From assembly GCF_024223415.1 (NCBI RefSeq), contig NZ_CP100500.1: 64,000 bases of DNA. The stretch is one strand, 5' to 3'. Below, piece by piece: positions 62,494-62,554 of the stretch. The notes beneath the pieces were generated by a model that saw only the letters and a program-made list of their open reading frames with translations, searched no databases and was not told where the DNA came from. Made by a program: the position numbers and the translations under genes. The stretch comes from Escherichia coli. Its GTDB lineage: Bacteria; Pseudomonadota; Gammaproteobacteria; Enterobacterales; Enterobacteriaceae. The stretch's first letter is position 1. Each line of letters starts with the position of its first letter.

Positions 62494-62506
62494 AAGTGAA
62501 ATCCTT

Positions 62507-62554
62507 AAGTGAATAAGTGAATAAGTGAATAAGTGAATAAGTGAATAAGTGAAT
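62507..62554. repeat. Six perfect tandem copies of the octamer AAGTGAAT immediately upstream of the antirestriction gene start
   Basis: AAGTGAAT x6 (plus one imperfect unit at 62494..62502) between the DUF932 stop (62595) and the antirestriction start codon (62493). Confidence 0.9.

Follow-up and report, generated by a model that had tools for sequence, protein, structure and literature searches.

We found that an antirestriction gene of Escherichia coli is preceded, in its untranslated leader, by a perfect tandem array of an 8-bp unit whose copy number differs by whole units between strains. The array was studied in a 64,000-nt stretch of E. coli DNA, which we call the window, and is best classed as a leader-region variable-number tandem repeat (VNTR) in a CP4-like island. 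Judged from its anatomy and from predicted RNA folding, it is probably a lineage-specific VNTR with either no consequence or a small quantitative one for translation or for the fate of the message.

Tandem Repeats Finder (TRF) reported the array at 62506..62555 with a period of 8, 6.2 copies, 100% matches, and a score of 100. The runner-up array in the whole 64-kb window scored 50, and the AAGTGAAT array is by far the strongest tandem repeat that the window contains. When the sequence was compared with itself at an offset of 8 bases, the identity run at 62506 was 42 bases long and the second longest at this offset was 7; in 200 first-order Markov simulations of the window, the longest run to arise by chance at offsets 4-12 was 13. 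The array is real and far beyond chance, and it consists of short head-to-tail copies as a VNTR does. An earlier note on this DNA had described six perfect 8-bp units, a count upheld by the sequence itself, by the TRF score of 100, and by the Markov simulations, and its mention of leader length was anatomically right in that the array sits in the leader of the antirestriction gene. The same note let the array begin at 62494 and abut the start codon. Both points need correction: the array starts at 62507, and the 13 bases at 62494-62506 are not array sequence and put the Shine-Dalgarno AAGGA between the units and the ATG. On the plus strand, the order of elements is TTTTCAT, AAGTGAAATCCTT, (AAGTGAAT)×6, and AGATAAGAGAGAAAAGG. 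Because all genes here lie on the minus strand, the unit is functionally read as ATTCACTT, a sequence without G, and in this direction the units are bordered by CTTTTCTCTCTTATCT on the 5′ side and nAAGGATTTCACTTATG on the 3′ side. The features of the leader and the adjoining genes are collected in Table 1.

Table 1 The 8-bp array, the leader that holds it, and the neighboring genes. Coordinates are positions in the window.
Feature	Coordinates	Strand	Basis or remark
Perfect tandem array, ATTCACTT ×6 on the coding strand (AAGTGAAT ×6 on the plus strand)	62507..62554	-	Sequence, TRF, simulations; number varies between strains
Translation initiation segment AAGGATTTCACTT (plus strand AAGTGAAATCCTT)	62494..62506	-	Sequence; same in all pure-array alleles
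Shine-Dalgarno AAGGA	62502-62506	-	8 nt before ATG
8-nt spacer TTTCACTT, a 7/8 degenerate seventh unit	62494-62501	-	Sequence
Antirestriction gene, 157 aa, PF03230 Antirestrict, KlcA/ArdB type, counterpart of K-12 yfjX/lfgA	62020..62493	-	ORF, Pfam
CU-rich tract CTTTTCTCTCTTATCT, directly 5′ of the array	62555..62570	-	Sequence
Imperfect 11-bp hairpin, weakly terminator-like; contains the stop codon of DUF932 (62595-62597) and precedes the CU-rich tract	62571..62599	-	Fold
DUF932 (PF06067) gene, 272 aa, upstream; stop 101 nt before the antirestriction start	62595..63413	-	ORF, annotation
RadC/JAB-family gene, 158 aa, first downstream of the antirestriction gene	61532..62008	-	ORF; near-identical AR_0085 and GF60 annotation

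Read along the minus strand, the spacer runs from a TGA stop codon set in the hairpin through CTTTTCTCTCTTATCT, (ATTCACTT)×6, AAGGA, and TTTCACTT to the ATG at 62493..62491, which is also the start given in the RefSeq annotation of AR_0085 and GF60. The genes follow in the order DUF932, the 101-nt spacer, antirestriction, RadC/JAB, DUF987, a 214-aa protein, a CbeA-type antitoxin, and a CbtA-type toxin; beyond the toxin lie DUF5983, DUF957, and DUF4942, then ParD/ParE and an integrase. The same layout is annotated at AR_0085 and GF60, two near-identical E. coli loci, and the window start of the RadC/JAB gene at 62008 was obtained by coordinate offset from L001. The gene string is common to the window and the cryptic prophages CP4-57, CP4-6, and CP4-44 of E. 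coli K-12, and the array-bearing module is a CP4-44/CP4-57-like E. coli island. In K-12, the genes yfjXY-ypjJ-yfjZ-ypjF (renamed lfgABCDE) have been treated as one operon (PMC10846083; PMC5371832). This CP4-57 string, with paralogues in CP4-6 and CP4-44, has the same order of antirestriction, RadC/JAB, DUF987, CbeA-type, and CbtA-type genes as the window. The K-12 copy differs in having another upstream region, where MqsA binds about 245 bp upstream of the start (PMC10846083), whereas the DUF932 gene of the window ends only 101 nt upstream. The K-12-like match (H40) covered part of the antirestriction gene only.

Several further features of the neighborhood were observed. On the plus strand, an ORF of 147 aa at 62056-62499 runs antisense over all of the antirestriction gene. 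This frame, which stops 8 bases short of the array, is probably a shadow ORF of the high-GC coding strand. A clean hairpin of terminator-like form lies at 63466-63487 (minus strand) in the intergenic region between a GTPase-family gene and the DUF932 gene, with the stem CGCGTCTTCCCCGGGAGACGCG followed by GCTTTTTCAT and nine pairs, six of them G-C, which suggests that the DUF932 gene starts a transcription unit separate from the GTPase gene. The CbtA-family toxin gene of the window (about 59728-60105, minus strand) is an uninterrupted ORF and apparently intact. In GF60 (L008/L115), the closest complete genome, the CbtA-family gene is split by IS100, and IS2 lies between DUF957 and DUF4942. Positions 40000-59000 of the window match a region of GF60 over 90% of the query at 99.2% identity, and the GF60 counterpart holds an S6-family (SPATE-type) autotransporter peptidase, IS21-, IS66-, and IS3-family elements, a PhoX phosphatase, a phosphoethanolamine transferase, and a second integrase. 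The overall layout suggests two tandem islands, the right-hand of which would carry the module with the repeat at its far end.

Among 5,426 complete E. coli genomes, the pure-array allele was present in two, AR_0085 with 6 units and GF60 with 5. More assemblies were found by exact-protein look-ups with the antirestriction and DUF932 proteins, and the sample came to 17 distinct E. coli assemblies, a small sampling given the roughly 140-150 contigs on record. In all 17, the 45 bp upstream and the 30 bp downstream of the array are identical and every unit is perfect. The number of units (n) is not constant: three assemblies have n = 3, nine have n = 5, two have n = 6 (the window among them), two have n = 9, and one has n = 11. 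We then compared 3.3 kb of flanking sequence with the array taken out. No differences were found among L091 (n = 5), L092 (n = 6), and L096 (n = 5), and L099 (n = 9) differs from these three at two positions. The window (n = 6) differs at 4 positions from L089 (n = 5) and at 16 from the other n = 6 allele. Because near-identical flanks carry differing n, there must have been at least four to five independent changes of copy number. In these alignments, copy number thus changes faster than point substitutions accumulate in the flanks, so that the array has both whole-unit differences between conserved flanks and the rapid change that distinguishes a VNTR. The earlier note had proposed the array as a substrate for slippage, which invariant copy number across strains would have contradicted. 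The comparison across strains bears the proposal out, with n = 3, 5, 6, 9, and 11 between identical flanks and changes between alleles that are 0-4 SNPs apart over 3.3 kb.

Assembly error is an unlikely cause of the length differences because the arrays, at 24-88 bp, are shorter than ordinary reads and because the same n recurs in independent assemblies. The islands that carry the array adjoin varied chromosomal genes (kpsF, cadC, yraN-side genes, and another integrase), and these differing neighbors suggest that the array-bearing module has moved or recombined between sites. The commonest form, n = 5 (9/17 assemblies), persists over flanks that differ at 55-170 positions; its prevalence could reflect stabilizing selection on length rather than neutrality. 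The 90% protein cluster of the antirestriction protein has many partial members, some of them on short contigs. The antirestriction module occurs at a median of 2 and up to 10 places per complete E. coli genome, and the partial members may come from draft E. coli assemblies that break at this multi-copy module. If so, draft surveys of the repeat would under-sample the array.

Other allele families of the same leader bear on the origin of the array. Leader alignment showed that the IHE3034-type family has a single unit at the homologous stretch, in the arrangement ...CTCTCATTTATTCACATTAC-AAGGATTTCATAC-ATG, and the single-copy form ...CATTTATTCACATTAC-AAGGA... survives in a related allele family. 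In the single-unit alleles of IHE3034 and strain 4314 (L006 and L007), the spacer after the DUF932 gene is much longer, at 262-338 bp, and contigs with the variant DUF932 proteins P0018 and P0020 likewise proved to be from other allele families, whose spacers measure 262-338 bp. The family L009-L011, about 90% identical to the window, has an interrupted array of ATTCACTT, ATTC, ATTCACTT, ATTTCCTTA, ATTCACTT, GTTCACTT, and ATTCACTT. Its members L009, L010, and L011 are E. coli Br_112_kylling, 23CRST013, and 135, and one member, shorter by 8 bp, has AAGGA changed to GAGGA. Seven complete-genome matches to this family, at 89.7% identity, share a span of 404 bp, and L010 is 8 bp shorter with point substitutions besides. 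From its sequence, the interrupted array looks like a decayed relative of the pure array, and interrupted arrays are apparently more stable than pure ones. The O157-type and K-12-like families have no repeat and only a pyrimidine-rich leader. Spans in the sampled rows of other families are fixed within each family, at 402-403, 366, or 387 bp, and two further matches span 562 and 638 bp.

A 22-mer of flank plus unit had no matches in genome contigs (one genome per species), metagenome contigs, or viral contigs, and plasmid BLAST returned other allele families only. The 24-mer (AAGTGAAT)×3 matched 76 times among the genome contigs (one genome per species), always in unrelated taxa; these are independent repeats and uninformative on this locus. 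Among them, an array in Acinetobacter baretiae (L082) is at least 168 bp long and some matches lie at contig ends of a Shewanella assembly. Single Gastranaerophilales/Melainabacteria genomes hold several separate (AAGTGAAT)×3 loci, which in the Gastranaerophilales may be a dispersed repeat family. The leaders of 14 IMG/VR relatives are all free of tandem arrays, and no recurrent repeat was seen at this position in other families, either in the sampled E. coli alleles or in the 14 IMG/VR relatives; such recurrence, had it occurred, would have suggested selection for variability. By sequence comparison, the array is best read as a lineage-specific expansion of a pre-existing leader motif: one lineage has it pure and variable, a second has it decayed and apparently more stable, and other families lack it. 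Arrays, whether pure or degenerate, have been kept in two families whose flanks are about 10% diverged. Such persistence is longer than a purely accidental expansion would predict and speaks against plain neutrality.

The array does not code for protein. No ORF of at least 30 aa spans 62494-62594 on either strand. Upstream there is a single ATG, and the ORF that it opens closes after 4 codons, short of the array. Stop codons are absent from every minus-strand frame of the array, yet the G-free tract upstream of it has no start codon. Coding potential was rejected on the ground that no ORF crosses the array, and a frame-shifting repeat inside an ORF, as at some contingency loci, is not what is found here. 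A search of 58000-64000 on both strands with Rfam 15 at the gathering threshold gave no match. [quoted passage not shown] We folded constructs with n = 0-12, in which the repeat is largely unpaired, and found that the prediction is constant for n ≥ 2: the energy is -54.5 kcal/mol throughout n = 2-12, and the Shine-Dalgarno pairing probability is 0.83-0.85. This constancy led us to reject an RNA-structure switch. The Shine-Dalgarno and the ATG do not change over n = 2-12, nor does the local RNA structure that is predicted around them; the anatomy thus argues against an on/off switch, which is unlikely, and it is from anatomy and folding that we infer near-neutrality. The hairpin at 62571-62599 has a predicted energy of -14.1 kcal/mol (z = -1.8), two bulges, and the tail CUUUUCUCUCUU rather than a clean U run; a terminator consensus scan picked a neighboring but different pairing at 62582..62566, and the hairpin is absent from the 90%-identical and O157-type alleles. 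As a weakly terminator-like element ahead of the array, it too speaks against plain neutrality. If it did terminate efficiently, transcription of the antirestriction gene would call for a promoter that scans for sigma-70 sites miss.

We propose that one copy of a leader motif grew into the perfect 8-bp array and that the array would now be gaining and losing whole units. Replication slippage would be the cause, given that the changes are of whole units in a perfect array and that the interrupted relatives are apparently more stable. The array is most likely transcribed within a DUF932-antirestriction-RadC-...-CbtA message, since the 101-nt spacer yielded no promoter in the scans and the counterpart genes have been treated as one operon. 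In that message, it would merely lengthen the unpaired, pyrimidine-rich RNA 5′ of an unchanged Shine-Dalgarno and start codon.

A larger role for length is unlikely in our view; in such a reading, expression would be tuned quantitatively by the extent of single-stranded RNA, free of G and rich in pyrimidines, that lies 5′ of the ribosome-binding site. Tuning could take two forms. In the first, the RNA would be a landing site for ribosomal protein S1 or a standby site that raises translation initiation. In the second, it would be a rut-like site for Rho loading, and a longer array would give more premature termination, and hence polarity, on the antirestriction-RadC-CbeA/CbtA genes. A rut site takes a stretch of untranslated RNA, unstructured, rich in C, and poor in G, of at least about 60-80 nt. 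Protein S1 reportedly binds pyrimidine-rich leaders, artificial polypyrimidine repeats are said to be able to act as Rho-dependent terminators, and Rho is reported to silence horizontally acquired and cryptic-prophage genes in E. coli. The array RNA resembles such sites in being G-free, 75% pyrimidine, predicted to be single-stranded, and placed 5′ of a Shine-Dalgarno. Together with the CU-rich tract, it makes a G-free run of 67 nt (62505-62571) at n = 6, the longest single-base-free run in the window. The run would measure about 43 nt with n = 3 and about 99 nt with n = 11, an interval that takes in the lengths at which Rho begins to load efficiently. In segments of 78 nt, the C/G ratio is 2.3-3.2 over the spacer compared with about 0.7-1.4 over flanking coding sequence, and a pyrimidine-rich, G-poor stretch before the Shine-Dalgarno is kept in all allele families of the leader alignment. 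On the other hand, C makes up only about 20-29% of the 78-nt segments over the spacer and 25% (2/8) of the unit, so the array is U-rich where a rut site is C-rich, and its variable length has no known counterpart in S1, standby, or rut-like sites. For the standby version, the 40-nt single strand at n = 3 should already saturate, so that output would not be expected to vary with n among the observed alleles, and about 25 nt of such leader suffices in other allele families. A more specific proposal, to which we give little credence, is that array length is a gate, set by slippage, of transcription or translation from the DUF932 gene into the antirestriction-RadC-CbeA/CbtA genes, by Rho loading or by a DnaA-type roadblock on TTATTCACT boxes. 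If this were true, sister cells or strains would differ heritably in antirestriction and toxin-antitoxin expression.

It is very unlikely that the array is a repeated protein-binding site on DNA, a putative operator or roadblock at which DnaA or another protein would block transcription into the antirestriction-toxin genes in proportion to n. The junction between units, TTATTCACT, matches the DnaA-box consensus TTATNCACA at 8 of 9 positions, which is the most that an 8-bp-periodic sequence can reach because positions 1 and 9 of the 9-bp box are then the same. In the single-unit family (L006 and L007), a perfect box, TTATTCACA, precedes the antirestriction Shine-Dalgarno by a few bases, and the degenerate family keeps perfect ATTCACTT in 5 copies despite altered spacing. 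The match was spotted by eye, post hoc and among many consensus sequences, and has little statistical weight; TTWTNCACA occurs in the window at chance frequency (6 found and 5.6 expected), so that the likeness to DnaA-box clusters, while present at each junction, is within chance expectation. Overlapping boxes at 8-bp spacing could not all be bound, families of the L002-L005 type have no box, and the unit is not palindromic. A true operator would moreover be expected to have a conserved copy number, not one that ranges from 3 to 11. We searched for the motif elsewhere with a two-unit probe at up to 3 mismatches. In the window, it gave two isolated 3-mismatch matches off the array, neither in register with it (shuffles give an expected mean of 0.6 and a largest value of 4), and in the 10 kb to either side of the array in five other islands it gave one 3-mismatch match and no second cluster. 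The single unit occurs once elsewhere in the window, with 2.2 occurrences expected in total. An operator shared with other sites was rejected, as these isolated 3-mismatch matches were all that was found. The suggestion of a repeated binding site, which the earlier note had offered together with such a motif search, therefore gains nothing from a second cluster in the window or in the five islands. An operator array is recognized by its motif at other sites or by conserved number and spacing; here, n is variable and the array is absent from other families. MetJ operators consist of 2-5 tandem 8-bp metboxes, AGACGTCT. The array shares their 8-bp tandem period but differs in its unit, which is not palindromic and is unrelated to the metbox, and in its copy number, which is not conserved.

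Finally, we scanned for promoters. With the sigma-70 consensus, no sigma-70-like promoter was found on either strand of 61900-64000, and a relaxed hexamer scan (≥7/12, both strands) gave weak matches only, none of which brackets the array. The hexamer TAnnnT is absent from the repeat. One 7/12 match starts in the last units and pairs TTCACT with AAGGAT, which takes the Shine-Dalgarno as the -10, and the best relaxed candidates reach 8/12, including TTCACA-16-TAAGCT, 120 nt upstream inside the DUF932 gene. With the consensus scan empty and the relaxed scan free of bracketing candidates, a promoter in or beside the array was rejected; in these sigma-70 scans, the repeat neither lies between nor overlaps a -35 and a -10. 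Promoter spacing, as put forward in the earlier note, fails on the same scan and on size, as the 48-bp array cannot fit a 17-bp spacer. Classical phase variation, with the repeat altering promoter spacing or strength and so switching the downstream island genes, does have the whole-unit variation between near-identical alleles in its favor, and the upstream hairpin and U-rich tract, if terminating, would require a promoter downstream of the hairpin, but lengths of 48 to 88 bp cannot sit between -35 and -10, the differences of 1-6 units between alleles point to no favored 'on' spacing, and the reading is the least supported of all and highly improbable.

In the contingency loci of Haemophilus, Neisseria, and Campylobacter, the repeat lies in a reading frame, between -35 and -10, or at a regulator site, and one unit toggles expression. 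Like these loci, the array is a perfect short repeat beside the beginning of a gene that takes part in conflict with restriction systems, and n varies between close relatives. Unlike them, it belongs to an untranslated leader and stops 13 nt short of the start codon, with no promoter consensus nearby, no ORF across it, and a constant predicted structure. The E. coli VNTRs used in MLVA are similar in their short, perfect head-to-tail units, whole-unit differences between strains, conserved flanks, and location in horizontally acquired DNA. The pure-array allele is, by comparison, so rare (two complete genomes) that it is unfit as a general typing locus. A literature search turned up no publication on the unit or on a repeat in this position.

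To our knowledge, few simple-sequence switches have been documented in E. coli. A fast-changing repeat before an antirestriction gene that heads a string of RadC and CbtA/CbeA genes is a plausible site for one, and such a switch is worth excluding or confirming. The array has modest practical value as a clean, rapidly evolving length marker that separates otherwise identical island copies, and n = 3, 5, 6, 9, and 11 form a natural allelic series for effects of leader length on translation or on Rho-dependent polarity. If the array does control expression, it would link slippage variation to the anti-defense genes of integrative elements in Enterobacteria.
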